Assembly: GCA_021851875.1 (NCBI GenBank)
Contig: JAJZQI010000001.1
Coordinates: 19,511-83,510 of the forward strand
DNA from: Pseudomonadota bacterium
GTDB taxonomy: Bacteria > Pseudomonadota > Gammaproteobacteria > Burkholderiales > JAJZQI01
Direction of reading: 5' to 3'
DNA: 64,000 nucleotides
Shown piece after piece: positions 6,546 to 31,921 of this stretch. A model generated the notes under the pieces. The model did no database searches, was not told where the DNA came from, and worked only from the letters and a program-made list of their open reading frames with translations. Position 1 is the first letter of the stretch. The number at the start of each line of letters is the position of its first letter. The translations under genes were made by a program, and so were the position numbers.

Positions 6546-8933
6546 ATGGCTTATCTGCCGTTGCCGCGCACTTTGCTAATGCGCATCATGTTCGGGGTTG
6601 CCGTGCTGCAATTCTGCGTGGTTGGGCTGTTCAGCGCCTATCTGTTTTTCGACATGATGGGCAGCGAAGCCAACAACAGGCAAATGCTGGCGCAAAAGAT
6701 CGTTTCGCTCAGCGCGCCCGGCATTGAACATCTGCTGCAAACCCACGACGATAAAACGCTGCCTCAGTTTCTCGAACGGCTGGCGGGAGACAACAGTGTT
6801 TCCGGCGTTACCGTCAAACGACTCGATGGCACGGTCTATTTCCAGCGCAGCAAGGCATCCTATCCGCTCAATGCGCTGGCGGCGATGCTGTTTCCCCAAA
6901 CGCTCAATGAAGTCGTCAACAGCGACATCAGCAAAGACGGAAAGCCCTACGGCACCTTGACGGTGCGCCTGTCGAACAGGCCGTTCAACAATGCGGTGGA
7001 AAATTTCCTGGAAAACATCGGTCTGCTGTTCCTGATACTGCTCGGTTTCAACCTGCTCGCCATGCAATTGCTGATAAGGCATCTGGTGGCGCCGCTGAAA
7101 CCCTTGACTGAACTGGCGATGCAGATCGGCGAAGGCAAACTCGACGCCGTGATCGACGTGTCGGAGAACGAGAGTGAAGAGGTGGTGCACCTGGCCCAGG
7201 CTTTCCGCAAGAACATCGATGTCATGCGCCATCAGATCGACGACCTGCAGGAGGCGCGCAGGCGGCTTTCGGCAAGCGAAACCCGCCTGCGCGACTTGAT
7301 CGACAGCATGCAGGAAGTGCTGCTGGAACTGGATCGGGAGGGGCGCATCGTTTTTCTCAATCCAGTATGGGAAGCGCTCACGGGGTATTCTGTCAATGCC
7401 AGTCTCAACCAGCCATTCAGCAGCTTCGTGGTGCAGCCGGTGCAGCAGGCCATGTTCGTCGCCGCTCGATTGCAGGAGATTCTGTTGCGCAACCTGCTGA
7501 TCGAATTGCGGGCGCATGACGGACACGCCATCTGGATCCACATGAACAGCAATCTCAAACAGGATGAGCAGGGTGTCTTCAGCGGCGTGGTTTGCACGCT
7601 GAACGACATTACCGAACTGATTCGGTTGCAGGACAAACAGCGCCAGCACGAAGCGGAACTGTACCGCCTGTCCATTACCGATCCGCTGACGGGTTTGCAC
7701 AATCGCCGCTACTTTGACGAAATGCTGGAACAGATTCTGCACAAGGGTTACCAGGGCGAACCGCTCAGTCTGCTGATCATGGATGTCGACGGGTTCAAGT
7801 TCATCAACGACACCTATGGGCATCCGGTAGGCGACGAGGTGTTGCGGCTGGTGGCCGAGGCGCTGCAGGAAATCGTTCCCGCTTCGGCAACTCTGGTGCG
7901 CATGGCGGGCGACGAATTTGCCATCCTGCTGCGCGACACCACTGAAGCGCAAGCTACCCGTACCGCCCAGCACCTGCGTCAGGCCGTCAGTCGTTTGCTC
8001 GTTCCGCTGGCGGTGGGCACGCTGCAGGTGCGCTGTTCCATCGGCGTGGCGTCGGCGCCGACGCATGGGCGCCAGCCGCAGGATCTGGTGCGTTCCGCCG
8101 ATGTGGCGCTGTACCATGCCAAGAAAAGCGGGCGCGACCGCGTCGATGTGTTGCCGCACAATGTGGGTGAAGCCATCATGGATATCTTTTCCCAGGGTTT
8201 CGAGCTGCGCAATGCCTTGCAGGCCGGTATGATCGCGCCGTTCATCCAGCCCATCGTCAATCTGCAAACGCGGGAAATTTTCGCCTACGAAGTGCTGACG
8301 CGGCTGCGGCGCGGCGATAGCTATGTGGCGGCGGATGAATTCATCCCCATTGCGGAGGATCTGGGCCTGATACGCGAGATGGATTTGCATATCATTCGCG
8401 AAGCCCTGCGGCGCGTGCCGCCGAAAACACATCTGTTCATCAACATCAGCCTGAGTTCGTTCTATAACCCCGAATTCGCCACCGAGCTGAAAAAGATCCT
8501 GCTGTCTCCGGCAGGCCGCGAGCATGAAATCACCATCGAGTTTACCGAGCGTCAGACAACTGCAATCTCGGAAGATTTTTTGAATTATTTTGACGACTTG
8601 CGCGAAGCGGGCTGCCGCATTGCGCTGGATGATTTTGGCGTGGGCTATTCAACCTACGGCTACATGCTGCAGGTTAAACCGAACTACCTCAAGATCGACG
8701 GCAGTTTTGTCCTGGATGCCATCAGCAACGAACTGGATGCCATGATCGTCAGGCAAATAGCGGACATCGCCGTTGCCTCCAGCAGCCTGACCATCGCCGA
8801 GCACATTGAAGATGAGGCCACCATGCAGAAAGTCCTGTCGCTCGGGGCTCATTACGGCCAGGGATACTATTTTGGCCGCCCGAAACTGGTGGAGCATTAT
8901 TTTCCGGCGGCGAAGATGGGAGGTGAGGCGTGA
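6546..8933 (+). CDS. membrane-anchored HAMP-PAS-GGDEF-EAL signalling protein (c-di-GMP turnover)
   Basis: Two TM segments flank a roughly 130-aa loop. HAMP-like linker, PAS (LDREGRIVFLNPVWEALTGY), GGDEF domain with AGDEF at 7905-7919, and an EAL domain with EVL at 8289-8297 plus DDFGVGYST and KIDGSFV. Confidence 0.9.
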   Translation: MAYLPLPRTLLMRIMFGVAVLQFCVVGLFSAYLFFDMMGSEANNRQMLAQKIVSLSAPGIEHLLQTHDDKTLPQFLERLAGDNSVSGVTVKRLDGTVYFQRSKASYPLNALAAMLFPQTLNEVVNSDISKDGKPYGTLTVRLSNRPFNNAVENFLENIGLLFLILLGFNLLAMQLLIRHLVAPLKPLTELAMQIGEGKLDAVIDVSENESEEVVHLAQAFRKNIDVMRHQIDDLQEARRRLSASETRLRDLIDSMQEVLLELDREGRIVFLNPVWEALTGYSVNASLNQPFSSFVVQPVQQAMFVAARLQEILLRNLLIELRAHDGHAIWIHMNSNLKQDEQGVFSGVVCTLNDITELIRLQDKQRQHEAELYRLSITDPLTGLHNRRYFDEMLEQILHKGYQGEPLSLLIMDVDGFKFINDTYGHPVGDEVLRLVAEALQEIVPASATLVRMAGDEFAILLRDTTEAQATRTAQHLRQAVSRLLVPLAVGTLQVRCSIGVASAPTHGRQPQDLVRSADVALYHAKKSGRDRVDVLPHNVGEAIMDIFSQGFELRNALQAGMIAPFIQPIVNLQTREIFAYEVLTRLRRGDSYVAADEFIPIAEDLGLIREMDLHIIREALRRVPPKTHLFINISLSSFYNPEFATELKKILLSPAGREHEITIEFTERQTTAISEDFLNYFDDLREAGCRIALDDFGVGYSTYGYMLQVKPNYLKIDGSFVLDAISNELDAMIVRQIADIAVASSSLTIAEHIEDEATMQKVLSLGAHYGQGYYFGRPKLVEHYFPAAKMGGEA

Positions 8934-8978
8934 ACGGTGAACAGGGAACAGGGAACAGGGAACAGGGAACAGGGAACA
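8930..8978 (+). repeat. heptanucleotide tandem array (GTGAACG, GTGAACA, 5x GGGAACA)
   Basis: Read directly. Seven head-to-tail 7-nt units, and the first unit contains the TGA stop of the GGDEF-EAL gene. Confidence 0.95.
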
Positions 8979-8994
8979 GCCGCCCGGGTCTTCA

Positions 8995-9030
8995 CTTCCC
9001 TCTTTGAAAAAGAGGGATTGAGGGGGATTT
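8995..9030 (+). repeat. 36-nt hairpin repeat element, copy 1 (CTTCCCTCTTTGAAAAAGAGGGATTGAGGGGGATTT)
   Basis: 32/36 identical to 31944-31979. Stem CCCTCTTT/AAAGAGGG. Followed by the perfect 12-nt palindrome CAGCAGCTGCTG at 9041-9052. Confidence 0.9.
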
Positions 9031-9083
9031 ACTTCAGCGGCAGCAGCTGCTGAGAAATCCACCACGTCTACACTTTAGTGTCG

Positions 9084-9111
9084 CCCAACCCTTCACCCTT
9101 CACCCTTCACC
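9084..9111 (-). repeat. heptanucleotide tandem array (minus-strand reading: 3x GGTGAAG, then GGTTGGG)
   Basis: Read directly. Plus strand is CCCAACC followed by 3x CTTCACC. The TGA stop of the RDD gene (9107-9109) lies inside the array. Confidence 0.9.
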
Positions 9112-9565
9112 CCTTCGGCTGATTCACCAGCCGCGTTCCAGCCAGGCGATCGTGCAGATACTGTCCCTGCCGGTCGAACAACGCCCAGACCACGCCGATA
9201 CCGAGGCCGTAGCTCGGCAAGGCGTAGAGCGCGCGCAGGATGGCGGTTTTCGGGTCGAGCTTGCTGCCGTCGTTGCGTTCCAGCCGAATGCGCCAGGTTT
9301 TCATGCCCAGCGTCTGGCCGCGTTTTACCCAGAACAGCACGTAGTAGCCCATGCCGACGGCCAGCAGGTAAAGCTGGAACACGTAGCGGAGCGGACCTTG
9401 CAAAACGGTCAGCTGGGACGACTGGTGCGCCTGGCTGACCGATGTGCTGGAAGCCAGCAGGGAAAAGGCCGCGCCGGCCATGAAGATGACGGCCAGCACC
9501 AGCAGACTGTCATACAGCAGACTGGCAAGTCGGCGGGCGATGTTTACGTGCATCTCGGGGGTCAT
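9107..9565 (-). CDS. RDD family membrane protein
   Basis: Three hydrophobic segments and an RDD-type ending (LHDRLAGTRLV). Last gene of the ECF sigma module. Confidence 0.75.
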   Translation of the reverse strand: MTPEMHVNIARRLASLLYDSLLVLAVIFMAGAAFSLLASSTSVSQAHQSSQLTVLQGPLRYVFQLYLLAVGMGYYVLFWVKRGQTLGMKTWRIRLERNDGSKLDPKTAILRALYALPSYGLGIGVVWALFDRQGQYLHDRLAGTRLVNQPKG

Positions 9566-9599
9566 GTCGTGTGTCCTGTTAACTGGGTGGGTTTGCGGG

Positions 9600-9986
9600 C
9601 TATTTGCCCGGTTTGTTCTGGTGGCCCGCCTGCCATTCCTGGCGGAATTCCTCGCGTTGTTCCGGCGGCATCTGGCGCAGCTGACTGAAGTTTTCCCGCG
9701 CGCGGCTGCGCTGTTCCGGCGACAGGTCGGCCCACTGCTGCAACCGGCGGTGCAAGCGTTCCCTTTTGTCCGGCGGCAGGCTCGGGTACTGCTCGGCCAC
9801 CATCATCAGGCGGGCGCGTTGCAGGTCGGACATCTGATTCCATTCGCCGGCCAGCGGCGACAGCGCTTCCCGTTGCTGGGAGTTCAATTGTTCCCATAAG
9901 GGCGCTGTCGGCGCATCGGCGTGGCCAAGCAAGGCATGGCCGGCTAGCAAACAGGCGATCAGCGCCTGGCGGACTTGTCCGGCCAT
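9600..9986 (-). CDS. DUF3106-like periplasmic protein
   Basis: Trimmed to the internal ATG at 9986 (MAGQVRQALIACLLAGHALLGHA signal peptide). Repeated W/L-x-L-S-P-E-Q-R motifs (WEQLNSQQREAL, WADLSPEQRSRAREN, MPPEQREEFRQEW). Confidence 0.75.
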   Translation of the reverse strand: MAGQVRQALIACLLAGHALLGHADAPTAPLWEQLNSQQREALSPLAGEWNQMSDLQRARLMMVAEQYPSLPPDKRERLHRRLQQWADLSPEQRSRARENFSQLRQMPPEQREEFRQEWQAGHQNKPGK

Positions 9987-10351
9987 TGGGGTATGTCCTC
10001 GTTCAGATAAGCGGAGATAGGCAGATCGCCGGTCAGCAACTGCGTGTCGATGTCCTGGATGGGCAGGGCGTGGTGAGGCTGCATGCTGCTGTACAGGGCG
10101 ATGCTCAGCAAAGCGATAAACACGAACAGCGCCAGCACACGATACAACAGGGGGCTGCCGGCCTCGTCGAGCAGGTCGAAGTCGAATCCCTGGCCTGTGC
10201 TCAGTGTGACGGTGGCGTGCATGCGTTGACGGGCCGTTGCGGCAGCGGCCTCGCGCGCCTGGCGCAGGCGCCATTCGGCGTGCGCCGGCAAAGCGTCCAG
10301 ATTCTGGTCCAGCTGCGTTTTTACCCAGCCGGCAAATATGCGCTCATTCAT
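9959..10351 (-). CDS. DUF3619-like single-pass membrane protein, candidate anti-sigma factor
   Basis: 8-nt overlap with the sigma gene stop. One central TM (LLYRVLALFVFIALLSIALY). Position immediately 3' of the ECF sigma gene. Confidence 0.65.
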   Translation of the reverse strand: MNERIFAGWVKTQLDQNLDALPAHAEWRLRQAREAAAATARQRMHATVTLSTGQGFDFDLLDEAGSPLLYRVLALFVFIALLSIALYSSMQPHHALPIQDIDTQLLTGDLPISAYLNEDIPQWPDKSARR

Positions 10352-10919
10352 TGATGTCGATCCCCTTGTCCTTCAGGAATGCAGCCAGCGCATGGTTCGC
10401 GCGCGAACAATGCGTTTTTACGCTGCCTTCCGAACAGCCCATGATTTCTGCGGTCTCTGCCACATCCATATCTTCCCAATAACGCAGCAAAAAGGCTTCG
10501 CGTTGACGTGCCGGCAGCTGCGCCAGTCCTTGTTCGATCCAGTGCATGATTTCTTCCCGCGCCAGCAGCTTTTCCGGCCGGGTTTCCTGCGGTGGTTCGC
10601 CGGCCGGCTGTAGCGTGTCGAGCAGGTCGTGCTCGTCGTCATCGTCCTTATTGCCGCCAAAGGCGGAAAACAGGGTGATCCAGGTGGAGCGGGTTTTGCT
10701 GCGGCGGTAATGGTCGTGAATGGCGTTCTGCAGAATGCGCTGGAACAGCATGGGCCACTCTTCCGCCGGCCGGTCGGCATAGTGCTCGGCCAGTTTAAGC
10801 ATGGCATTCTGCACGATATCGAGCGCGGCTTCCTCGTCGCGCACGGCATAAAGCGCCTGTTTGAAGGCGCGTCGCTCGCTCTGGGCAAGGAAGGAGGAAA
10901 AGGCGTCCAGCGGATTCAG
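10344..10919 (-). CDS. ECF-type RNA polymerase sigma factor (start codon uncertain)
   Basis: Sigma-2 (RRAFKQALYAVRDEEAALDIVQNAMLKL, ILQNAIHDHYRR) and sigma-4 (LPARQREAFLLRYWEDMDVAETAEIMGCSEGSVKTHCSRA). There is no ATG or GTG near the expected N-terminus. Candidate starts are CTG at 10919, preceded by GGAG with a 6-nt spacer, or TTG at 10955. The track start at 11075 overlaps the divergent gene. Confidence 0.8.
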   Translation of the reverse strand: MNPLDAFSSFLAQSERRAFKQALYAVRDEEAALDIVQNAMLKLAEHYADRPAEEWPMLFQRILQNAIHDHYRRSKTRSTWITLFSAFGGNKDDDDEHDLLDTLQPAGEPPQETRPEKLLAREEIMHWIEQGLAQLPARQREAFLLRYWEDMDVAETAEIMGCSEGSVKTHCSRANHALAAFLKDKGIDINE

Positions 10920-11037
10920 GTGAAACTCCGGATGAGGGCACTGGCAAAGCGGCAATCTTAACAGACAGCAAAGTTTTGCGAAATTTTGCGCGGGTTTGGT
11001 ACCATCGTGCGTTTCGATGTATGACGGGTAGCAGTAG

Positions 11038-12603
11038 ATGGACAGCGATCTGAAGTCTCTGGAGTTCGACGGCATTCGCCGACTTCTCGAACGTTTGGCA
11101 TTGACCCCCTATGGCGCGGATGCGGCGCGCAATCTGGAGCCGGCTCCCAGTCTGGCCGTCGCCCGCGCCATGCAGCAGGCCGTGACGGCTTCGCGTCAGG
11201 TGGTGGACGGCTATCTGCTGCCGCGCCTGGGCAATGTGCCGGATATCCGCGCCTCGCTGCGTCAGGCCGATCAGCAGGGCGCCGCCCTGTCGCCCAGCGC
11301 GCTGTCGAATCTGCGGGTGGTGATGAATATCGTGCTGCAGCTGCGCGAGCTGGTGGCGCAATTCCCCGGGCTGTACCAGAACATCGGTCAGCTCAAGGCG
11401 CCCGCCACGCTGATGCAGGTGCTGGACAAGACCATTTCCCATGCCGGCCGCCTGAAGGAAGATGCCTCGCCCGAGCTGGCGGATCTGCATAAACAATATG
11501 TCGATATCCAGAAGCAGGTGGAAAACCATCTGAAGGACCTGATCCGCTCGCCCTCTTACACCGGTCTGTTCGACGAGGATGCCAAGCCGGGCTGGCAGGG
11601 CATTCGCGCTGTGCTGACCATTCGTGCGGTCAATGCCGACAAGATCAAGGGTGTGCGTCGCGGCACCTCGGGCGGCGGGCGCGACGCCCTGGTCGAGCCG
11701 ATCGAGGTGGTGGCCCACAACAACCGGCTGGAAACGCTGGGCGGTCAGATCGAGTCGCAGAACCAGATCGTCCTGCGCGCGGTGACGGATGACGTGCGCG
11801 CCCATCTGGCCGAGCTGGAGGGCGCCATCGACGCGCTGACCTGGATCGACCTGGCGTTTGCCGCCGGTCAGCTGTCGGCTGCCATGAACGCCGGCGCTCC
11901 GGCGCTGGTCGATGCCCCCATCGTGCGTCTGAACAAAGCCTACCACCCGCAGCTGATGCTGCAGTTCATGGACAAGCAGATCAGCCAGCTCAAGCCCCTG
12001 ACCATCCAGCTGGATGAAAACCAGCCGATGATGGTGATCACCGGGCCCAATACCGGCGGCAAGACGGTTGTGCTGAAAACCGTCGGCCTGCTGGCCACCA
12101 TGGCGCACTGCGGTCTGCATGTGCCGTCGGAAGAGTTGTGCGAGATCGGCGACTTCTCCCGCATTATCGTGGATGTGGGCGACAAGCAGAGCCTGCATCA
12201 CCACCTGTCCACCTTTGCCGGCCACGTGGAAGTATTGAAGCGGCTGCTGGGCGAGGCCGATGACCGCACGCTGGTGCTGATGGACGAGTTGGGCACCGGT
12301 ACCGATCCGGAAGAGGGCGCTTCGCTGGCCATGGCGGTGCTGGATGAGCTGTCCAGCCGCAAGGTGCACGGCATCGTCACGACCCACCTGTCACCGCTTA
12401 AGGGCTTTGCCGATGGTCACAGCTATTTGACCAACGCCTCCATGCGCTTCGATTTTGAAAATCTGTCGCCGACGTATGAACTTGAGCCGGGCAAGGCGGG
12501 TCAATCCCTGGGGTTGATCATTGCCGAGAAGAACGGCTTGCCCAGCGGTCTGGTGGAAAAGGCTCGCGGCTATCTGGCAACCCTGCACCCGAACGGGGGG
12601 TGA
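11038..12603 (+). CDS. MutS2-family ATPase lacking a Smr domain
   Basis: MutS domain V with Walker A (ITGPNTGGKTVVLKT) and Walker B (LMDELGTGTDPEEG). The protein ends about 80 aa after the ATPase, with no Smr-like C-terminus. Confidence 0.75.
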   Translation: MDSDLKSLEFDGIRRLLERLALTPYGADAARNLEPAPSLAVARAMQQAVTASRQVVDGYLLPRLGNVPDIRASLRQADQQGAALSPSALSNLRVVMNIVLQLRELVAQFPGLYQNIGQLKAPATLMQVLDKTISHAGRLKEDASPELADLHKQYVDIQKQVENHLKDLIRSPSYTGLFDEDAKPGWQGIRAVLTIRAVNADKIKGVRRGTSGGGRDALVEPIEVVAHNNRLETLGGQIESQNQIVLRAVTDDVRAHLAELEGAIDALTWIDLAFAAGQLSAAMNAGAPALVDAPIVRLNKAYHPQLMLQFMDKQISQLKPLTIQLDENQPMMVITGPNTGGKTVVLKTVGLLATMAHCGLHVPSEELCEIGDFSRIIVDVGDKQSLHHHLSTFAGHVEVLKRLLGEADDRTLVLMDELGTGTDPEEGASLAMAVLDELSSRKVHGIVTTHLSPLKGFADGHSYLTNASMRFDFENLSPTYELEPGKAGQSLGLIIAEKNGLPSGLVEKARGYLATLHPNGG

Positions 12604-12777
12604 CGGGGCTGTCGCAGCAGACGGGGTTATCCGCCTTGTCTGTAGGGGTTTTGCGCTGGCTCGGGGGTTAAATTTTCCTTGACCAAACTGGCATATGTCG
12701 GTAACTTCAAAGGTTTTTCGGTACGAAATAATCTGTCGGCGTTGGTGCTGGCGGAATTGATTTAAAGAGTTGAAAAA

Positions 12778-15016: not shown

Positions 15017-15037
15017 CGCCTCACGCCTCACGTCTCA
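15017..15037 (+). repeat. heptanucleotide tandem array (CGCCTCA, CGCCTCA, CGTCTCA)
   Basis: Read directly in the ilvH-ilvC spacer. Confidence 0.8.
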
Positions 15038-15056
15038 CTATTAAACGAAAGGATAG

Positions 15057-16076
<1,020 letters not shown>

Positions 16077-16083
16077 TCAGGGC

Positions 16084-16161
16084 GTGAAGGGGGAAGGGAG
16101 AAGAGGGAAGGGCTGAGCCCGGCCTTCTTGCTCCCTTCCCCCTTCTCTCTTTTCCCTTCCC
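16084..16161. repeat. two inverted purine/pyrimidine heptamer arrays forming a long imperfect hairpin
   Basis: 16084-16111 reads GTGAAGG GGGAAGG GAGAAGA GGGAAGG. 16134-16161 reads CCTTCCC CCTTCTC TCTTTTC CCTTCCC. The arms are 23/28 complementary by my hand alignment. Located between the ilvC stop and the psd start. Confidence 0.85.
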
Positions 16162-16170
16162 AGGATTCCT

Positions 16171-16821
16171 ATGTCCAACTACCCCCATCCTATTCTTGCC
16201 CGCGAAGGCTGGCCCTTCATCGCCCTCTCCGTGGGAGCAGCCATTGCTGCAACACTCTGGTTCCCGGCTGCCCAATGGCCGCTGTGGATCATTGCCGGCT
16301 TCGTGGTGCAATTTTTCCGTGACCCGCCGCGCGAAATTCCGTCAGGCGAGGGCTTGGTGATTTCTCCGGCCGACGGCCGCATCGTGGCCATCGAAAAGAC
16401 CACCGATCCCTACCTGAACCGTCAGGCGCTGAAAATCAGCGTGTTCATGAACGTGTTCAACGTGCATTCCAATCGCAGTCCGGTCGACGGCGAAGTGAGG
16501 CAGCGCTGGTACAACCCGGGCAGGTTTCTCAATGCCGCGCTGGAAAAGGCCTCGCTGGAAAACGAGCGCAATGCCCTGTGGATCAAGACCGCCGACGGCC
16601 AGGACGTGACCTGCGTGCAGATCGCCGGCCTGGTGGCGCGTCGCATCCTGTGTTACGTCGACAAGGGTTCGCAACTGGCCCGCGGTCAGCGTTACGGCTT
16701 CATTCGCTTTGGCTCGCGCGTCGATGTATACTTGCCACCGAATGCCACCCCCAAAGTCGGTATGGGTGACAAGGTCAGCGCTACGGAAACGGTGCTGGCA
16801 CAACTGCATAGCGATGTCTGA
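16171..16821 (+). CDS. psd: phosphatidylserine decarboxylase proenzyme (short form)
   Basis: 216 aa. [10 protein letters not shown] contains the GS(R/T) self-cleavage site region. Adjacent to pssA. Confidence 0.88.
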
Positions 16822-16840
16822 CAGAGAGCCGTAAGCCGCA

Positions 16841-17629
16841 ATGGCACAAAACTACGAAAAACGCACTCACCGTTCGCTGATTGATCCCGCCATGAGCCGG
16901 CGGGGCATCTACCTGTTGCCCAATCTGTTCACCACCGGTGCCTTGTTTGCCGGTTTCTACAGCATCGTCCAAGCCATGAGCGGGCGGTGGGAGCATGCCG
17001 CCGTGGCCATTTTCATCGCCATGGTGCTGGACGGTCTGGATGGCCGGGTGGCGCGCATGACCCGCACCCAGAGCGCCTTCGGGGCGGAATACGACAGCCT
17101 GTCCGACATGGTGTCGTTTGGTGTGGCGCCGGCGCTGGTGATGTATGTCTGGGCGCTCAAAGGCATGGGCAAACTGGGCTGGATCGCCGCCTTCATCTAT
17201 TGCGCCGGTGCCGCATTACGTCTCGCGCGTTTCAACACCCAGCTGGAAGTGGCTGACAAACGTTACTTCCAGGGCTTGCCCAGCCCGGCTGCCGCCGCGC
17301 TGATCGCCGGTTTCATCTGGGTGCTGAACGACTATGACATTTCCGGCGTTACCGTGCACTGGGCTGCCTGGGTTCTGACCCTGTTTGCCGGCCTCAACAT
17401 GGTAAGCAACATGCGCTACTACAGCGGCAAGGACATTAACCTGCGTAAAAGCGTGCCGTTTGTCGTGATCGTAGGCATCGTACTGGCTTTTGTGCTGATT
17501 TCCTACCGCCCGCCTGAGGTGCTGTTCGGTCTGTTTGTGCTGTATGCCCTGTCGGCCTATGTGCTGGCGGTGGTCGGCTGGTTCAGGAAAGATAGCAAGA
17601 AGGGTGTTCCGCCAGCGGCAGGTCAGTGA
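16841..17629 (+). CDS. pssA: CDP-diacylglycerol--serine O-phosphatidyltransferase
   Basis: CDP-alcohol phosphatidyltransferase motif DGLDGRVARMTRTQSAFGAEYDSLSD within a polytopic protein. Confidence 0.92.
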   Translation: MAQNYEKRTHRSLIDPAMSRRGIYLLPNLFTTGALFAGFYSIVQAMSGRWEHAAVAIFIAMVLDGLDGRVARMTRTQSAFGAEYDSLSDMVSFGVAPALVMYVWALKGMGKLGWIAAFIYCAGAALRLARFNTQLEVADKRYFQGLPSPAAAALIAGFIWVLNDYDISGVTVHWAAWVLTLFAGLNMVSNMRYYSGKDINLRKSVPFVVIVGIVLAFVLISYRPPEVLFGLFVLYALSAYVLAVVGWFRKDSKKGVPPAAGQ

Positions 17630-17644
17630 GTGAGGCTGCAAACG

Positions 17645-17672
17645 GTGAACAGTGAACAGTGAACAGTGAACA
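17645..17672 (+). repeat. heptanucleotide tandem array (4x GTGAACA)
   Basis: Read directly, 16 nt after the pssA stop and followed by the degenerate unit GTAGCAA. Confidence 0.95.
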
Positions 17673-17680
17673 GTAGCAAC

Positions 17681-17710
17681 AAAAAAGCCCACGACAGCGT
17701 GGGCTTTTTT
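17681..17710. terminator. bidirectional rho-independent terminator
   Basis: AAAAAAGCCCACgacagcGTGGGCTTTTTT, a stem flanked by an A6 run and a T6 run, between convergent pssA and the helicase gene. Confidence 0.85.
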
Positions 17711-17757
17711 GTGGGGCGAGCGGCTAGTTTTCTGCTAACCGCTTGCTGTTCACCGTC

Positions 17758-19407
17758 TCAGTAACGCTTGTCGGCGTTGCTGCGCTTGGGGCGGCGCTCG
17801 CCGCCGAAGCGGTCGTTGTTGCCTTCTGCGCTGCGCGGACGACGATCAGCGTTGAAGCTGTTGCCTTCGCGCGGGGCGCGGTTGCCGAAGTTGTCGTCGC
17901 GGCGGGGAGCGGCATGGTTGTCCGTGCGCTGGCCGTAACCACCTTCACGGCGCTGACCACCAAAGCCACCTTCGCGCCGTTGGCCGTCAAACCCGCCTTC
18001 GCGACGCTGGCCGGCGAAACCGCCTTCGCGGCGTTGGCCCTCAAAGCCACCTTCGCGACGTTGACCGTCGAAACCACCTTCACGGCGCTGACCGCCAAAA
18101 CCGCCTTCACGACGTTGACCGCCGAAACCTTCGCCGCGGTTGCCGTAACCGGCCTTCTGGCCATGACGCGGCGGCTGGTTGCGACGGTCGCCACGGCGTT
18201 CCGGGCTCGGCTTGATTTTCGGTTCCAGACCTTCAATGGTGTGGATATCCATGGTCTTGGTGGTGTAGCGCTCGATGGCGCGCACCAGACCGCGCTCGCG
18301 TACGCTGGCCAGCGATACGGCGACGCCGGAGCGACCGGCACGGCCGGTACGGCCGATGCGGTGCACGTAATCTTCCACCTGGCGCGGCAGGTCGAAGTTG
18401 ATCACGTGGCTGACGCCGGCGACGTCGATGCCGCGGGCCGCCACGTCGGTGGCCACCAGCACGCGCATACGGCCCTGGCGCAGGGCCTGCAGGGTGCGGT
18501 TGCGCTGGCCCTGGTTCATGTCGCCGTGCAGTGCGCCGGCCTGGAAGCCGTTGGCGCGCAGTTCGCTGGAGATGTCTTCGGCCGCCATTTTGGTGGAGGT
18601 GAACACAACGGCCTGGTTCATGCTGACGTCGCGCAGCAGTGCATCGAGCAGGCGGGTCTTGTGGCCCAGATCGTCGGCAAACATCAGGCGCTGTTCGATT
18701 TTGGCTTCCTGTTGCGGCTGCTTGGCAATCTCGATACGCTGGGCATTACGGGTGATGCGGCTGGCCAGGTTGCCCACTACGCCGTCCAGCGTGGCTGAGA
18801 ACAGCAGGGTCTGGCGGTTGTCCGGCAGGCGGGCGATGATGCTTTCGATGTCGCCGATGAAGCCCATGTCCAGCATGCGGTCGGCTTCGTCGAGAATGAG
18901 GGTTTGAATATTGCCCATTTCAACGCGGCCGCGTTCCATGTGGTCCATCAGGCGGCCCGGCGTGGCGACGATGATGTCGACCGGCTGGCGCAGCAGTTGC
19001 AGCTGCTTGGCGTACGGTGCGCCGCCTACCAGGCAGACGGTGCGCAGACGGCGCAGTTCGCGACCGTAGGTGTCGGCGGCTTTTTGCACCTGCAGGGCCA
19101 GTTCGCGGGTCGGGGTCAGCACCAGCACGCTGGCGCCATTACCGGGACGGCCGGAGTCGGCCAGACGCTGCAGGCAGGGCAGCAGGAACGCGGCGGTTTT
19201 GCCGCTGCCGGTGTGCGAGGATACCAGCAGGTCGGACCCGCTCAGCGCGGCCGGGATAGCCTGTTGTTGTACCGGAGTCGGCTGGGTGTAGCCGGCGCGT
19301 GCCAGTGCCTTGGTAATAAAGGGGTTCAGTCCGAGCGAGTCGAACGTAACGGTGTCGGTTGCGGTTTCAGTGGACGCAACGGGGGTATTGCTTGCTTCAA
19401 CAGTCAT
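17758..19407 (-). CDS. rhlE: DEAD-box ATP-dependent RNA helicase with Arg/Gly-rich repeat tail
   Basis: Q motif, SHTGSGKTAAF, DEAD (ILDEADRM), SAT and HRIGRTGRAG motifs. C-terminal tail has about 7 tandem GQRREGGFx nonapeptides. Confidence 0.93.
   Translation of the reverse strand: MTVEASNTPVASTETATDTVTFDSLGLNPFITKALARAGYTQPTPVQQQAIPAALSGSDLLVSSHTGSGKTAAFLLPCLQRLADSGRPGNGASVLVLTPTRELALQVQKAADTYGRELRRLRTVCLVGGAPYAKQLQLLRQPVDIIVATPGRLMDHMERGRVEMGNIQTLILDEADRMLDMGFIGDIESIIARLPDNRQTLLFSATLDGVVGNLASRITRNAQRIEIAKQPQQEAKIEQRLMFADDLGHKTRLLDALLRDVSMNQAVVFTSTKMAAEDISSELRANGFQAGALHGDMNQGQRNRTLQALRQGRMRVLVATDVAARGIDVAGVSHVINFDLPRQVEDYVHRIGRTGRAGRSGVAVSLASVRERGLVRAIERYTTKTMDIHTIEGLEPKIKPSPERRGDRRNQPPRHGQKAGYGNRGEGFGGQRREGGFGGQRREGGFDGQRREGGFEGQRREGGFAGQRREGGFDGQRREGGFGGQRREGGYGQRTDNHAAPRRDDNFGNRAPREGNSFNADRRPRSAEGNNDRFGGERRPKRSNADKRY
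17935..18135 (-). repeat. in-frame 27-nt tandem repeat inside the helicase gene (GQRREGGF-x units)
   Basis: Seen in both the DNA and the translation. Units differ mainly at the 9th codon (G/D/E/A). Confidence 0.9.
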
Positions 19408-19843
19408 GATTTTTCCAGATTGAGGCGGCCCAAATTCAATAATGGGATGCCAACGCGTACAAAAAAGCGAGTAAGCTCACTTGGCCTACGCGTGAAGGCG
19501 GAGTGATCGCGACATGTCACCGGCTCTAACCAAAATTTGCAGTGAGTCGCTTGATCAGGAGAAGAACTGCTGATGAAGCCCTACGGGGGGTCAGGACGAT
19601 GAAATTACTACTCATTAAGCACAGAGTCTGTTCGTTACCCTGTTTGACAGATGTCATATACATGAAACGAACAGGCGCGAATGATAGGGGGTTTGCACGT
19701 TAAAGTAAAGTTATTTATTCACTTTTGTTGTTGTGGTCGATCTCCTTGTAATGTTTCGTAAAAAGGGTAAGCTAAAGCGTATCAAAAATAACAACAGCGG
19801 CGTTTGCAATGCGCCGGTTTTTACCAAAGAGGAGGGTGTACCA

Positions 19844-26200: not shown

Positions 26201-26205
26201 GCTTC

Positions 26206-27351: not shown

Positions 27352-27393
27352 GGCGATTATCCTTTTAAACGCTTGCTGAATCAGGGCACGACT

Positions 27394-27424
27394 ACCTGAC
27401 CGGCGGGCTAACCCGCCGGTAGGT
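27394..27424 (-). other. intercistronic stem-loop between the rubredoxin and reductase genes
   Basis: ACCTgACCGGCGGGctaaCCCGCCGGTAGGT, 13 bp with one bulge and no U-run. Possibly a processing/stability element or a partial terminator. Confidence 0.5.
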
Positions 27425-27432
27425 CCGTCATA

Positions 27433-27597
27433 TCAGATTTCAATCATTTCAAAATCGGCTTTCGCCACACCGCAATCGGGGCAGGCCCAGTCGACCGGAA
27501 TGTCTTCCCACCTGGTGCCCGCGGCGATGCCTTCTTCCGGCAAGCCTTCCGCTTCGTTGTAGATAAAGCCGCATACGATACATTGCCAAACTTTCAT
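27433..27597 (-). CDS. rubredoxin (54 aa, absent from the supplied ORF track)
   Basis: My translation: [54 protein letters not shown]. Two CxxCG knuckles (CIVCG, CPDCG). SD AGGAGA sits 5 nt upstream. Confidence 0.93.
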
Positions 27598-27632
27598 GAT
27601 GTTCTCCTGTGTTCTGTCTATTTACTGTTCAA

Positions 27633-28109
27633 TTACTTGCCGGTCACGCCCGCGAGGGTTTCGCGGTAGTGGTTGGCGTGTTTCTCTTCCACCTTGGCCA
27701 GGGCGGCAAACCGCTTGGCGGCTTTTTCCAGGGTGGCGGCAAAGCGCTCGGCATGCTCCTTGGATTCGGCGATCTGTTCGTCGATTTCCCTGACCGCCGC
27801 TTCGTTCTTCTCCTGCTCGGCCATGTGGCGGAAAGAAGGGTACATTTCGGTATACTCGTGGGTTTCCCCTGCAATCGCCATCTCCAGGCACTTGGCCGGG
27901 GTCATCTCGTCTTTCGGGTACAGCAGATCGAGGTGGCCGAAGGCATGCATGACTTCCTGTGCAGCGGTTTCCTCGAACACTTTTGCCGTCGTTTCGTCGC
28001 CGGCGGCACGGCAGACGCGGGCAAAGTACATGTATTTGATGTGGGCCATGGATTCGCCGGCAAAGGCGGATTCGATGTTTTTTACAGTTACGGATTCGGT
28101 CGCTTGCAT
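27633..28109 (-). CDS. rubrerythrin-family diiron protein without a rubredoxin domain (erythrin-like)
   Basis: Four-helix ferritin-like pattern with E...ExxH twice (FAGESMAH, QEVMHAFGH, AGETHEYTEMY, EEKHANHY). 158 aa with no C-terminal CxxC pair. Confidence 0.8.
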   Translation of the reverse strand: MQATESVTVKNIESAFAGESMAHIKYMYFARVCRAAGDETTAKVFEETAAQEVMHAFGHLDLLYPKDEMTPAKCLEMAIAGETHEYTEMYPSFRHMAEQEKNEAAVREIDEQIAESKEHAERFAATLEKAAKRFAALAKVEEKHANHYRETLAGVTGK

Positions 28110-28169
28110 GATTCATCTCCTGTCGATTGATTTACCATTTGCACCGCGAAACTGCAGTGCATGGATTGC

Positions 28170-28198
28170 ATCTTACGGAGATGAGTTAGATAGGTAAA
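28170..28198 (-). promoter_or_regulatory. candidate promoter for the erythrin operon (TTTACC, 17-nt spacer, TAAGAT) in an AT-rich spacer
   Basis: Hexamers read on the minus strand. CTAT/ATAG-containing AT-rich DNA upstream could be an OxyR site but does not match the consensus spacing. Confidence 0.3.
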
Positions 28199-28227
28199 AT
28201 TAATTGTTTGAATATATGTGATAGTAA

Positions 28228-29145
28228 TTAGCTATTGATAAGTGATACGCACGGAATATCGCTCGCCAGAATGGCTTGGCGCAAAGCGGCCACAGCCTCG
28301 GGGCGGGGAAAACTCTTGCGCCAGGCCAGGGCGATGGTCCGCTGCGGCACCGGCTCGGCAAAGGGCAGGTAGCGCAGCAAAGGGTTTGCTCCAGCGGCCG
28401 TGCAGGGCAGGACGGTTACGCCTGTGCCCGAGGCAACCATGTGACGGATGGTTTCCAGCGAGCTGCCTTCCAGGGTTTTCTGCATTTCGCCCGGCTGCGA
28501 GCTGGGGCGGTTAAGTTCCGGGCAGGCCTGCAATACCTGGTCACGGAAACAATGGCCGGTACCCAGCAGCAGGGTGGTTTCGTCAGCCAGCTCGTCCGGC
28601 TGGACGGTCGTGTGGCTGTGCCAGGGATGGTCGTGCGGCACCGCAACCGTAAAGGGCTCATGGTACAGCGGCTGGATATCCACGCCGGGTTCAATAAACG
28701 GCAAGGCAATGATGATGACGTCGACTTCTCCCTGGCGCAGCCGTTCTGTCAGGCGGGAGGTGAAGTTTTCTTCCAGCAGCAGGTGCAGCTGCGGCGTCGT
28801 GCGTTGCAGCGCGGGAATCAGGCGCGGGTAGAGATAGGGCGCCACGGTGTAGATGGCGCCTACCTTGAGCGGTTCGGCCAAAGGGTCGCGCCCGGATTCG
28901 GCAATTTTCTTGATCAGCCCGGCCTCTTCCAGTACTCGTGCGGCCTGGGCAACAATCCGTTCGCCCACGGCGGTGAGCCGGACTTCCTGTTTGTCTCTTT
29001 CAAATAGCGCAACGCCAAGTTCGTCTTCCAGTTTGCGGATGCCGACCGAGAGGGTGGGCTGGCTGACGAAACACTTGTCCGCCGCGCGGCCAAAATGGCG
29101 TTCGTTGGCAACGGCGACAATGTATTTGAGTTCGGTCAGGGTCAT
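28228..29145 (-). CDS. oxyR: LysR-family hydrogen peroxide sensor OxyR
   Basis: HTH start MTLTELKYIVAVANERHFGRAADKCFVSQPTLS. Redox pair context LLGTGHCFRDQVLQAC, equivalent to OxyR C199/C208. Confidence 0.85.
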   Translation of the reverse strand: MTLTELKYIVAVANERHFGRAADKCFVSQPTLSVGIRKLEDELGVALFERDKQEVRLTAVGERIVAQAARVLEEAGLIKKIAESGRDPLAEPLKVGAIYTVAPYLYPRLIPALQRTTPQLHLLLEENFTSRLTERLRQGEVDVIIIALPFIEPGVDIQPLYHEPFTVAVPHDHPWHSHTTVQPDELADETTLLLGTGHCFRDQVLQACPELNRPSSQPGEMQKTLEGSSLETIRHMVASGTGVTVLPCTAAGANPLLRYLPFAEPVPQRTIALAWRKSFPRPEAVAALRQAILASDIPCVSLINS

Positions 29146-29167
29146 GGCAATCGCAATGGAGTTTCGC

Positions 29168-30016
29168 TCAGCTTAACGCAAATCCGTGCTGCATGCATTT
29201 TCTCGCAGCGATGGAGTTGGCATGAGCCAGTGCCTGGGAAAACGACAGATTGCGCGCCAGCGCGTCGATTAAACCGGCATTGAACGCGTCGCCGGCGCCC
29301 AATGTGTCGACCGGCCGGTCAATTCTGGCGGCCGCTGCGTGCAGCCGCTGCCCGTCCGCATCGCCAAATGCGCCCTGTTCGCCCCAGGCCAGTGCGATAC
29401 GCGCCTGCGGGCTGCGGGCGCGCAACCAGTCGAGCATGGCGGCCGGGGTGTTCAGGTCAAGGTGAGCGGCCAAGGCTTTGCCGGCAATCAGCACATCCGG
29501 CAGCGGCAGAACGGATTCCAGCTGGTCGCGCCATTTTTCCGCTTCCAGCGAAACGGTGCAGGGAGGACATTCGGCGCGAACCCGGGCGATCATCCGGCGC
29601 AGTTCGGCAATGGCGCGGCCTTCAAAATGCACCCATTGCACGTCGTGCAGGGGGACGGCGGCAAATTCGTCGGCGGTCAGCTCGGGCAGATCGCGGTAAT
29701 GCACGATCGTGCGCGAGCGGGCGGTGAGGGTGATGGACGACGTGGGCGGACGGCCCGTATGGCGGGCCGCATGGCGGTAGTCGATGCAGTATTGATCCAG
29801 CTCGCCGGTAATGATCGCCGATTCGGGGGTGTTCGCCAGCACGCCGGCCCAGCGGCAGGCATGTCCCAACTGGCTCAGCATCACCAGGGTGTTGGTGGCA
29901 TTGCCGCCACGGCTGATGCGCAGGCTCTGGGCACGCGTTTCCTCGTCCTCGGCCGGGTAGTGGTCGGTGCCGAAAACGAGGTCAAGCGTGGCAATACCGA
30001 CTGCCAGAATGTTCAT
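29168..30016 (-). CDS. PfkB-family sugar/nucleoside kinase (ketohexokinase-like)
   Basis: N-terminal GIATLDLV and GGNATN motifs, and C-terminal DTLGAGDAFNAG ATP-site motif. Confidence 0.8.
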   Translation of the reverse strand: MNILAVGIATLDLVFGTDHYPAEDEETRAQSLRISRGGNATNTLVMLSQLGHACRWAGVLANTPESAIITGELDQYCIDYRHAARHTGRPPTSSITLTARSRTIVHYRDLPELTADEFAAVPLHDVQWVHFEGRAIAELRRMIARVRAECPPCTVSLEAEKWRDQLESVLPLPDVLIAGKALAAHLDLNTPAAMLDWLRARSPQARIALAWGEQGAFGDADGQRLHAAAARIDRPVDTLGAGDAFNAGLIDALARNLSFSQALAHANSIAARKCMQHGFALS

Positions 30017-30022
30017 TCGGGC

Positions 30023-30406
30023 TTACCAGCGATACTGCTCGAAGAACAGCGGCAACTTGCTAACGACCTCGTCCCGCTCGAAGAAACGGTCGGCGCGCGA
30101 CAGGCGGGCTTCGTCGCGTTCTTCCGGGCTGCCGCCGAAACAGAAAATCGGCAGATTGAGCATCCATTCCATGCGTACCTGACGGATCACGTCCAGCGGG
30201 TCGAATACGGTCAGGTCGTCCAGATCGAGGAACAGAAAGCGATGCAGCAGCACGTCCTGATACTCGCCCAGGTCGTCCAGGCTGTCGGTGCGGATCATCT
30301 CCCAGTCGGCTGGAGTGACGGCACGGATCTGCTCAGCGAGAGGTTCGTCGTGCGTCATCAGGATGAAGCGTTTTTTCAGGCGTTCTGCAATGGTCGGAAT
30401 GGCCAT
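30023..30406 (-). CDS. receiver-like (CheY-fold) protein with degenerate phosphorylation pocket
   Basis: 127 aa. KRFILMTHDE (beta1), HRFLFLDLDD (beta3 acidic site), LPIFCFGG (beta4). No conserved Lys segment is evident. The 1-nt TAATG junction with the upstream gene implies translational coupling. Confidence 0.45.
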   Translation of the reverse strand: MAIPTIAERLKKRFILMTHDEPLAEQIRAVTPADWEMIRTDSLDDLGEYQDVLLHRFLFLDLDDLTVFDPLDVIRQVRMEWMLNLPIFCFGGSPEERDEARLSRADRFFERDEVVSKLPLFFEQYRW

Positions 30407-31422
30407 TAGTCGTTCTCAAAATGGGCGGTTTGTACAATGCGCTCGGCCCACAGGCCGGCTTCGTCGGTATGCGACTGTAGCACAGCCGTCAGGCTGGTGG
30501 TGTCCGGGGTACATTGCAGCAACTCGGTCAATACCGTTTCGCCAAGGGATAATGACAGAGCCAGCCGTTCCAGTTTGTCGCCCCGGGTTTGCGCGCGCAC
30601 CCAGTCGTCGCCATGAGCGGTAACATAGTGCCGCTCCGTGAGAAAGCGACGGGCATTCAGCTTGATGCCATGGGGCACGAGCCGCTGGCGGGCCGGATAT
30701 ATTTCATTCTCGTCGGGCTGATAGGCTGCAATGGCGGTTTGTTCCGCGGCAGTCAGGACGCTGTGTGTGATTGCGCAGCCAAGATGGGTTTTCAGCTCAC
30801 GCTGCAGTTGTTGCATCAGCTCGCACTGGGCCGGCACAGGGGCAATGCTGTGCCAGTCCGTCACCGCTTCGCCGAGCGCTTCGCCGAGCCACTGGCGGAA
30901 GCCGGCGGAGGGCGCTGCAATGCAGGCGGCGAAGTGTTCAGCCGGAAAGCGAAACAGAAAACTGCTGGCAACCAGGCCGGCGCGACCCATGCTGGCCGCC
31001 CCGCTGCCGGCCAGTTTTTTGCCCTGAAACCACAGGTCATGCACTACGCGCTCAGCTGCAATGCCGAAATGTGCGTAGGTTTTGCGCATGGGCTGCAACA
31101 GGGCATCAAACCACTGTGTCGGGCGTTTGCCGCTGATCCAGTTGTGCGGCAGGATCAGCACCAGCAGCAGCTGCTGTTCGTCGAGCCATACGCCGCCGCC
31201 GCCCAATGGGCGTTGCAGCACGGGTATATTGCAGGTCGGGGCCAATTCAAGCGACTGACCCTGATGCGCGCCCAAGCAAAAATGCGCCGGTGTGCGGCCG
31301 CATAAGAGAATTGGATTGCCTTCGGCTGGCAGGGATTCCGCCAGATGCTGATAGGCTTTGTGCCAGACATCGGCCTGCACCAGGCCCAGGTCGACCAGGC
31401 GCAAGGCGTTTTTCTCAGGCAT
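30406..31422 (-). CDS. lipoate/biotin protein ligase family (LplA-like) with unique C-terminal domain
   Basis: Trimmed to MPEKNALRLVD at 31422. QRPLGGGGVWLDEQQL matches the RRxSGGGAVyHD pattern of LplA. QGKKLAGSGA matches the catalytic-lysine segment GrKIsGSA. Confidence 0.7.
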   Translation of the reverse strand: MPEKNALRLVDLGLVQADVWHKAYQHLAESLPAEGNPILLCGRTPAHFCLGAHQGQSLELAPTCNIPVLQRPLGGGGVWLDEQQLLLVLILPHNWISGKRPTQWFDALLQPMRKTYAHFGIAAERVVHDLWFQGKKLAGSGAASMGRAGLVASSFLFRFPAEHFAACIAAPSAGFRQWLGEALGEAVTDWHSIAPVPAQCELMQQLQRELKTHLGCAITHSVLTAAEQTAIAAYQPDENEIYPARQRLVPHGIKLNARRFLTERHYVTAHGDDWVRAQTRGDKLERLALSLSLGETVLTELLQCTPDTTSLTAVLQSHTDEAGLWAERIVQTAHFEND

Positions 31423-31819
31423 CGTCCCCGGCGGGCTGTTCGGCGTCGGATTTGAAGAATTTGCCGAAATAGAAGTCGCGGCGATCCAGGTCTTGCAGTT
31501 GGGCGGCACGTTCCTGCACGCCCTGGCGCAGAATCTCTGCCAGGTAACCGCCCTGTTCGCGATCGACGATGTGGATCTGACCCATCAGGTCTTCATCCAG
31601 ATTGAGGATGTGTTCGGCCAGGCCTTCGGGGTAGGACAAATGCAGCAGCCAGGCCTGGTTTTCGGCATCTTCCGGATCCAGCGGGCTGAGCGTGATTTTG
31701 CCGAGCCAGGCCAGACGCGCGGCCATATTGAACTGGCGGATGTCGAGTTTTTTGCCCTTTTTGTACTTGTTCAGCTCGTTCTTGATCTGACCCACGTCAG
31801 TCACTTTGATCTGTTTCAT
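31415..31819 (-). CDS. hypothetical acidic protein (134 aa), first gene of the operon
   Basis: Codon usage matches the neighbours. 8-nt overlap with the next gene. No family recognised. Confidence 0.5.
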   Translation of the reverse strand: MKQIKVTDVGQIKNELNKYKKGKKLDIRQFNMAARLAWLGKITLSPLDPEDAENQAWLLHLSYPEGLAEHILNLDEDLMGQIHIVDREQGGYLAEILRQGVQERAAQLQDLDRRDFYFGKFFKSDAEQPAGDDA

Positions 31820-31886
31820 CAGGTACTTCCGAATGCGCTATCGAAAGCAGAGGAGTTTCCGCGAAAACGGGGTTTTGTGCAACCCT

Positions 31887-31921
31887 GAAGGGAGAAGGGA
31901 GAAGGGAGAAGGGAGAAGGGA
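31887..31921 (+). repeat. heptanucleotide tandem array (5x GAAGGGA)
   Basis: Read directly; perfect units. Confidence 0.95.

Follow-up and report, generated by a model that had tools for sequence, protein, structure and literature searches.

A 64-kb stretch of DNA from an uncultured betaproteobacterium (positions 19,511 to 83,510 of contig JAJZQI010000001.1, assembly GCA_021851875.1; all 64,000 nucleotides together are called the window here) contains seven head-to-tail arrays with a 7-nucleotide (nt) period at six loci between genes. These arrays are probably heptanucleotide long simple-sequence repeats (LSSRs) that originated by strand slippage, a judgment that covers both what they are and how they arose. 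Arrays were located with Tandem Repeats Finder and with an independent period scan requiring at least three units, and genes were mapped from open reading frames (ORFs), G+C content at third codon positions (GC3), and the annotation of related contigs. An earlier sequence-only reading of the window had reported seven arrays at six intergenic loci, and all were found by the two scans. Tandem Repeats Finder scores were 37 to 82, with 93 to 100% matches, for five of the arrays, and a mutually inverted pair was imperfect (80% and 72% matches).

Period 7 was the only over-represented period in the window. Arrays of at least three units numbered five at period 7, none at periods 8 to 12, one at period 6, and two at period 5, and order-3 Markov simulations of the window (n = 100) averaged 0.15 period-7 arrays and never exceeded 2. 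Noncoding DNA makes up 11.8% of the window, and the probability that all six loci would fall there by chance is approximately 3 × 10^-6. Except for 4 to 6 bases overlapping a stop codon, every array lies outside ORFs, which bears out the earlier claim that none is in coding sequence.

Arrays also followed an orientation rule. In 7/7 cases the nearest ORF lies 5′ of the G-rich strand (binomial probability, 0.008). Where the G-rich strand is the sense strand (A1, A2, A4a, and A5), the array lies 0 to 15 nt after a stop codon; where it is antisense (A3, A4b, and A6), the array lies 9 to 67 nt before a start codon. The sequence-only reading had placed several arrays at or just after stop codons and proposed a role in the 3′ untranslated region (3′ UTR) or near terminators. 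The location holds for those four of the seven arrays and fails for the other three, for example the array at 31887, which precedes a minus-strand gene. A steady rise in cumulative GC skew indicates that the plus strand is the leading strand across the whole window, and because arrays were found on both strands there is no replication-strand bias.

The first two arrays are convergent across one shared spacer. Array A1 (8930 to 8979, plus strand) consists of GTGAACG, GTGAACA, and five copies of GGGAACA, with five G3 tracts; Tandem Repeats Finder reported 8939 to 8979 (GAACAGG, 5.9 copies, 100% matches), which the GTGAACG and GTGAACA units extend to 8930. Array A2 (9084 to 9112, minus strand) has three GTGAAGG units (GGGTGAA) and five G tracts, and was reported by Tandem Repeats Finder as 9088 to 9112 (ACCCTTC, 3.6 copies). 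In both, the stop codon of the adjacent gene is part of the repeat, as had been noticed from sequence alone: the TGA (8931 to 8933) of a PAS-GGDEF-EAL gene (6546 to 8933) lies inside the first A1 unit, and the TGA (9107 to 9109, minus strand) of an RDD gene (9107 to 9565, minus strand) lies inside the first GTGAA-type unit of A2.

Three arrays occupy the ilvH-ilvC-psd region. Array A3 (15017 to 15038, minus strand; 3.1 copies by Tandem Repeats Finder) lies in the ilvH-ilvC gap, 21 nt before the ilvC ATG, and reads CGCCTCA, CGCCTCA, CGTCTCA on the plus strand, or GTGAGGC-type units on the minus strand, with no G3 tracts. Arrays A4a (16084 to 16112, plus strand; 16086 to 16112 in Tandem Repeats Finder) and A4b (16133 to 16161, minus strand) form the inverted pair. 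The former begins 7 nt past the ilvC stop, reads GTGAAGG GGGAAGG GAGAAGA GGGAAGG, and is the purine arm of a long hairpin, of which the latter, ending 9 nt before the psd ATG, is the pyrimidine arm on the plus strand. Array A5 (17641 to 17674, plus strand) contains 4.9 copies of GTGAACA (AACAGTG in Tandem Repeats Finder) and no G tracts. It starts 11 to 15 nt past the stop codon of pssA (CDP-OH_P_transf), with a bidirectional intrinsic terminator (17681 to 17710) directly 3′ of it, between pssA and a DEAD-box helicase gene. Array A6 (31887 to 31922, plus strand) is a homopurine run of 5.1 GAAGGGA units with five G3 tracts, 67 nt upstream of the ATG of a gene encoding a 134-amino-acid (134-aa) protein (31415 to 31819, minus strand). 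Together the genes neighboring arrays are ilvH and ilvC, psd, pssA, the DEAD-box helicase, GGDEF-EAL, and RDD genes, and a lipoate-ligase-like operon. Weak period-7 matches at 5280, 29405, 42536, and 52108 have only 2.1 to 2.7 units each; the one at 52108 is lptF-like coding sequence, as judged by eye.

Read on the G-rich strand, all units fit the pattern G-N-G-A-R-(S)-N. In the window these are GTGAACG/A, GGGAACA, GTGAAGG, GGGAAGG, GAGAAGG, and GTGAGGC, and a sister species adds GTGAGGG, plus GTTAGGC as a one-step variant. The sequence-only reading had raised the possibility of an assembly artifact. Arrays recurred without a single base change in assemblies made independently from other samples (L081 and L082 across 15017 to 17674; L216 across 8930 to 9112), and at 22 to 50 nt they are shorter than a sequencing read, so they are not products of assembly.

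Array turnover in a sister species

Orthologous sites were compared in an array-bearing sister species (genomes GCA_021847305.1 and GCA_027444585.1; contigs L083 to L086 and L211 to L213; DNA approximately 88% identical, PssA 98%, and the 134-aa protein 96%), in which array position is retained at four of six sites. Downstream of pssA, a single GTGAACA in the sister (..GCGGTGAACAGCAACAACAAAAAAGCCCAC..) corresponds to four in the window (..ACGGTGAACA GTGAACA GTGAACA GTGAACA GTAGCAACAAAAAAGCCCAC..) between the same flanks. At the RDD stop, the window has three copies of TGAAGGG and the sister has GTGAGGC plus six copies of GTTAGGC, and both arrays begin in the stop codon. Three units are present in both species between ilvH and ilvC, with a different substitution in each; the inverted pair between ilvC and psd is retained; and the array at the GGDEF-EAL stop is absent in the sister (L085).

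Upstream of the 134-aa gene, in the orientation of that gene, the window has five TCCCTTC units and the sister has CTCACCC (GGGGTGA) instead, in 4.9 (L211), 10.1 (L212), or 5.1 (L213) copies depending on the assembly. Contigs L212 and L213 have both flanks in common and are separated by a single 35-nt gap, exactly five units. Beside the CTCACCC array the sister still carries a decayed remnant of the window type (CTCTTCC CCCTTCT CTCCTC), with the array distal to the remnant. This pattern is the signature of slippage-driven microsatellite birth, homogenization, decay, and replacement. Comparing copy number across relatives had been suggested beforehand, and whole-unit differences between the sister species emerged; one versus four GTGAACA between the same flanks and the exact five-unit insertion or deletion favor the earlier proposal of local slippage from a seed over the spread of one mobile copy, and the variable length it anticipated is evident upstream of the 134-aa gene.

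That same site (L211 at 424 to 930, L212 at 121 to 300, and L213 at 74 to 290) marks a synteny breakpoint, with a different upstream flank in L211, in L212 and L213, and in the window. The flank is a helix-turn-helix (HTH) gene in L211, a duplicated GC-rich element GGCCTCGTTGGGCCAGGACGGGCGGCTTCGGCCGCCG in L212 and L213, and a hairpin element with a gene for a 294-aa secreted protein in the window. Contigs L212 and L213 end within approximately 450 nt of the 134-aa gene, and L211 ends approximately 930 nt away.

Gene order (ilvI-ilvH-ilvC-psd-pssA) and closest proteins are betaproteobacterial (Sulfurirhabdus, Sulfuricella, Gallionellaceae, and Azonexus). Among the matches listed, IlvC is 87 to 89% identical to proteins of Pseudomonadota, Gallionellaceae, and Azonexus; PssA is approximately 78% identical to that of Sulfurirhabdus and Sulfuricella, and the 134-aa protein is 67% identical to one from Sulfuriferula. 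The metagenome-assembled genome GCA_027356545.1 differs from the window by 4 mismatches in 13.3 kb. Judged from these similarities, the host is an uncultured betaproteobacterium related to Sulfuricellaceae and Gallionellaceae, with arrays as a probable genus-level trait of its lineage. In a control set of ilvC-centered loci from 80 other beta- and gammaproteobacteria among the matches listed (1.38 Mb, host not included), there were 2 period-7 arrays, or 1.4 per Mb, versus 78 per Mb in the window. Nearer relatives (L087, with PssA 81% identical; L088 to L090, with PssA 91% identical; L214; and L215) had no arrays, except for the ilvC-psd hairpin retained by L088. Because the sister species carries arrays and these nearer relatives do not, the trait is recent and roughly genus level.

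Proposed slippage mechanism and competing explanations

Under the slippage reading, arrays would begin with the duplication of a short G-rich seed (GNGAR..), which in many cases is the gene's own stop context, G-TGA-A/G. Strand slippage in replication or repair would then add or remove units singly. Variant units would arise by point mutation and be amplified in turn. A 7-nt insertion or deletion shifts the reading frame, so arrays would survive in noncoding DNA only and pile up at gene boundaries. We infer the slippage step itself from features that were observed, namely periodicity, noncoding confinement, unit-wise insertions and deletions, unit turnover, and lineage restriction. Near-perfect head-to-tail units beyond chance, the dominance of period 7, and whole-unit copy changes between relatives are likewise what defines heptanucleotide LSSRs. 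The orientation rule and G-richness may reflect a structural effect of the kind suggested for the repeats of Xanthomonas and Nostoc, for instance a G-quadruplex (G4) or a hairpin, located either in the 3′ UTR or close to a promoter.

Candidate seeds are enriched at gene ends. GTGA[AG] occurs at 9 of 57 gene ends versus a background of 3.6%, and in six of these nine the gene terminates at that very TGA, in line with the favored seed at TGA stops that the sequence-only reading had envisaged. The sole sequence common to loci is an exact 11-mer, ACGGTGAACAG, found 3 to 15 nt after the stops of three genes: GGDEF-EAL (8934 to 8944, plus strand), pssA (17642 to 17652, plus strand), and the DEAD-box helicase (17746 to 17756, minus strand). 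The units had been described as related but locus-specific; they are indeed related and G-rich, and strict locus specificity fails because this 11-mer recurs at three gene ends. The helicase copy is an unexpanded single seed 4 nt after the stop of its gene (17758 to 19407, minus strand). It matches the first A5 unit in inverted orientation, so that the two flank the bidirectional terminator as an inverted repeat, and the entire pssA-helicase spacer folds at −62 kcal/mol (z score, −6.6).

Several observations weigh against slippage as a full account. Approximately 72 kb of the genome was read, over-representation is known for the window only, and all arrays fall within 8.9 to 32 kb, with none in the 32- to 64-kb part of the window or in the 8.5-kb upstream flank. 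Within the window's own strain, three assemblies showed no difference in copy number. Slippage alone leaves the 11-mer at three gene ends, the recurrence of unit types within the genome, and the orientation rule unexplained, which leaves room for a structural role, for ribosome or protein binding, or for copying of units between loci. As for structure, A3 (CGCCTCA), A5 (GTGAACA), the weak A4b, and the sister's GTTAGGC array cannot form canonical G-quadruplexes, so a quadruplex role is not general.

One explanation of the regularities that slippage leaves over is that arrays are selected, structure-forming elements (G-quadruplex, H-DNA, or long hairpin) that modulate termination, stability of mRNA 3′ ends, or promoters, with slippage only tuning their length; we regard this as a genuine but minority possibility. 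In a motif scan, A1, A2, A4a, and A6 each have at least four G3 tracts with loops of at most 6 nt. They account for four of the seven canonical G4 motifs in the window, and for each the predicted gain from a quadruplex is approximately 10 kcal/mol relative to the quadruplex-free fold (ViennaRNA, gquad option). The A4a/A4b RNA hairpin (27 bp, −55.1 kcal/mol, z score of −3.1) is retained in two other species (L083 and L088) and is thus kept across three, with one compensatory pair; a more distant relative has a different hairpin in the same spacer. Selection on structure would also accommodate the 7/7 orientation rule and the retention of positions in the sister despite changes in unit, and most of the similar arrays in Xanthomonas are transcribed, with G4 formation observed in vitro (PMC4692102). 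What a structural element does not predict are GTGAACA, CGCCTCA, and GTTAGGC arrays lacking G3 tracts, copy numbers from 1 to 10 at orthologous sites, and the absence of A1 from the sister. Watson-Crick structure beyond shuffled controls was not found for single arrays (z scores of −0.3 to +0.7) other than at A4 and in the pssA-helicase spacer, and no function has been found even for the well-studied Xanthomonas repeats (PMC4692102).

Multisite binding would act through sequence instead of shape. Arrays might be platforms for CsrA-type recognition (ANGGA), purine runs that resemble Shine-Dalgarno sequences and retain ribosomes once translation has terminated, or sets of stop triplets covering all frames; we consider such a role quite unlikely. 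AGGGA or GGAG motifs are repeated in A1, A4a, and A6; TGA is present in every A2 and A5 unit, and TAG is present in every unit of the sister RDD array. Because 7 is coprime with 3, a stop triplet in each unit closes all three frames within 21 nt, and similar ideas have been raised for TAACTGA repeats (PMC4679880). Yet no motif is common to all arrays, so that CsrA sites, Shine-Dalgarno-like runs, and all-frame stops each fit some arrays only: GGGAACA, GGGAGAA, and GGGAAGG lack a stop triplet, three arrays run antisense to their nearest gene, and units are replaced between sisters at the same site. Rfam matches were terminator-like only.

Two arrays share a neighbor that bears on the remaining explanations. 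A 35-nt element, CTTCCCYCTTTGWAAAAGRGGGATTGAGGGGGATT, consisting of a C tract, loop, G tract, loop, and second G tract (C-G-G), lies 15 nt 3′ of A1 (8995 to 9029, plus strand; CTTCCCTCTTTGAAAAAGAGGGATTGAGGGGGATT), and a second copy lies 21 nt 3′ of A6 (31944 to 31978, plus strand; CTTCCCCCTTTGTAAAAGGGGGATTGAGGGGGATT), followed by the terminator of the 294-aa gene at 31980 to 32006. Its C-tract/G-tract/G-tract layout resembles that of class II (C-G-G) intrastrand triplex motifs of the TMECO/BoxC type, cataloged by Holder 2015 (PMC4666352). The exact 21-mer core of the element was present in at least 120 metagenome contigs (L091 to L210) with 41 to 63% G+C, and a plasmid BLAST search placed it on Pseudanabaena plasmids, at unannotated sites only. 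In these metagenome contigs a partner of the type AAATCCCCCCTnnCCCCCCTTTnnAAAGGGGGGA frequently accompanies the element. No Rfam family was found for the arrays or the element, and E-value mode returned nothing beyond the terminator-like matches.

Contigs carrying the C-G-G element (696 kb) contained 22 period-7 arrays, or 32 per Mb, approximately 20 times the control density, which suggests that repeat-tolerant genomes accumulate both features. Nine of the 22 are no more than 250 nt from the element (binomial P of 5 × 10^-5), with the caveat that both features are intergenic and that an estimated 25 to 29% of intergenic bases are in that zone. A physical tie between arrays and element is therefore unproven, since proximity is confounded by common intergenic location. 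Contig L160 (4223 to 4306) has (GGGAAYC)12 located 28 nt 5′ of the element, the same array-then-hairpin layout as in the window. Other array-bearing loci among these contigs include L134 (9379 to 9606), L188 (1385 to 1608), and L154 (9155 to 9275). Several metagenome arrays flank the element as inverted pairs. Unit types recurring across unrelated organisms in these contigs are GGGAAYC, GGGAAGG, GTGAGGC, and xTGAACx, many with GAA or TGA.

Arrays could alternatively be genome-specific punctuation of gene boundaries, in which a GNGAR heptamer is copied by a templated process, anchored by its 5′ end against an ORF, and read by some agent. Templated copying to gene ends is proposed because of the exact 11-mer at three stops and the recurring unit types within each species. 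Possible readers are the ribosome or an RNA- or DNA-binding factor, acting through Shine-Dalgarno-like runs, all-frame stops, or a quadruplex or triplex formed with the C-G-G element. We consider this scheme a long shot, but if it were true, a single general mechanism would also underlie the heptamers of Xanthomonas, Nostoc, Beggiatoaceae, and Geobacter.

Very unlikely, in our estimation, is that arrays belong to a small element, mobile or dispersed, of the miniature inverted-repeat transposable element (MITE) or repetitive extragenic palindromic (REP) kind that inserts at gene ends, perhaps together with the C-G-G element. The 11-mer at three gene ends, the two arrays 15 to 21 nt 5′ of the same 35-nt hairpin element, the 9 of 22 metagenome arrays near it, and the layout of L160 would all be accounted for. 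Against insertion, copy number changes between identical flanks, units differ among loci, the hairpin element is absent from the neighborhood of five of the seven arrays, and its proximity to arrays is a confounded statistic. Nor was any terminal inverted repeat, target duplication, or transposase seen. Finally, phase variation, in which promoter-proximal copy number would switch a gene on and off, is highly improbable even though A6 abuts a possible −35 hexamer (TTGCAC, by eye) and its ortholog in the sister varies from approximately 5 to 10 copies, since neighboring genes are housekeeping genes (ilvHC, psd, pssA, the lipoate-ligase-like operon, and the DEAD-box helicase), most arrays follow stop codons, a consensus promoter scan had no match, and such a role was also rejected for Xanthomonas repeats (PMC4692102).

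Other features of the window

The C-terminal part of the DEAD-box helicase gene contains an in-frame tandem repeat of 27 nt (9 codons) in approximately seven copies (17937 to 18129), with periods of 54 and 81 nt as well; the sister helicase is 17 residues longer (566 versus 549 aa). An Rfam match to 5_ureB_sRNA at window positions 1 to 215 (minus strand; 100 bits, gathering threshold) falls inside the urease alpha-subunit coding region and is most likely a coding-sequence match rather than a small RNA. A 413-aa PssA-like product (P0001), encoded on a 1.4-kb contig, scores above full-length orthologs and may be a fusion or read-through. Contigs of both species from several independent assemblies start at exactly the same point, approximately window position 12756 and 23 nt upstream of ilvI, where no repeat is present; this shared start is probably a graph break caused by two co-occurring species that share a conserved stretch.

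For annotation, heptamer arrays mark gene boundaries, can break or mislead assemblies, and should not be mistaken for regulatory RNA. The lineage is also a compact natural experiment, as its co-occurring sisters display array birth (1 to 4 copies), unit replacement, and within-species length variation (approximately 5 versus 10 copies). Since slightly more distant relatives lack arrays, the onset of the process can be dated, and genomes can be compared to look for the replication or repair change behind it.

Comparison with known heptamer repeats

The sequence-only reading knew of heptameric intergenic repeats in heterocystous cyanobacteria and of no equivalent description for this kind of genome. 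Such descriptions do exist outside cyanobacteria: according to later papers (PMC4679880 and PMC4692102), heptamer LSSRs occur in Burkholderia and Xanthomonas, and the Xanthomonas heptamers share the position and orientation rules described here (PMC4692102). The short tandemly repeated repetitive (STRR) sequences of heterocystous cyanobacteria are tandem heptamers in noncoding DNA at many loci, as here. Their units (CCCCAGT, TTGGTCA, and CAACAGT) differ from those of the window, and the present host is not a cyanobacterium, making these arrays an analogue of STRR rather than a member.

As summarized in PMC4679880 and PMC4692102, the survey of Mrázek 2007 covered LSSRs with 5- to 11-nt units and found heptanucleotides to be the commonest long class in most prokaryotic genomes. 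Genomes rich in LSSRs included those of cyanobacteria, actinobacteria, Xanthomonas, and, within the Betaproteobacteria, four Burkholderia. The authors proposed that such repeats originate by slippage and that 7 nt matches the stretch of DNA held by the polymerase. Arrays in the window are like those LSSRs in the dominance of heptamers and in being intergenic, the unit not being a multiple of three; LSSRs were also reported from nonpathogens with a G+C content of approximately 60% or more, including Burkholderia. In the form cited, that work is a statistical survey, without a unit family, an orientation rule, or turnover at orthologous sites for this lineage.

Two families each defined by one fixed unit offer a partial match. 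Direct TAACTGA repeats, described from cyanobacteria, Bacteroidetes, and marine Beggiatoaceae, immediately precede start codons and run in the forward orientation (MacGregor 2015, PMC4679880), and Geobacter metallireducens has GGACCGG (four copies, at 49 sites) and MTYCTGA (five copies), with GGACCGG elements also inside genes (PMC2700814). Like arrays in the window, these are short (2 to 6 units), intergenic at a great many sites, and limited to particular lineages, and some units include stop triplets. Unlike them, units here are mixed, and start-proximal arrays are antisense.

The nearest parallel is with the G-rich heptamers GGGAATC of Xanthomonas and GGGGA(C/T)T of Nostoc, which are 89 to 93% intergenic (Rehm 2015, PMC4692102). 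According to that study, these repeats average 28 nt from the 5′ neighboring ORF, with the G-rich strand sense at most 50 bp from a stop or overlapping it, or antisense just before a start. They typically have four or more units and form 70 to 75 convergent inverted pairs per genome; 83% of positions are common to sister species, with variable length and sequence, and there is no link to surface or virulence genes. Shared with the window are the 7-nt period, G-rich units with an A after the G run, intergenic location, the orientation toward a 5′ ORF (7/7 here), inverted or convergent pairs (A4a/A4b and A1/A2), arrays typically of four or more units, positions that are mostly retained with variable length and sequence, and the lack of a link to surface or virulence genes. 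Local density is higher in the window, although in a tiny sample (7 in 64 kb versus approximately 37 per Mb in Xanthomonas campestris).

Differences lie in the units and the host. GGGAATC is absent from the window, where the mixed units GGGAACA, GGGTGAA, GGGAGAA, GTGAACA, and GTGAGGC are found instead. Relative to the (GGGANTN)n pattern of Rehm 2015, GGGAACA, GGGAGAA, and GGGAAGG share GGGA at positions 1 to 4 but lack T at position 6, and GGGTGAA, GTGAACA, and GTGAGGC share neither. Three arrays have no G3 tracts, and the host is an uncultured betaproteobacterium. The arrays thus belong to a known kind of heptamer repeat; what sets them apart is the mixed unit set, some of it not quadruplex capable, and the uncultured host.

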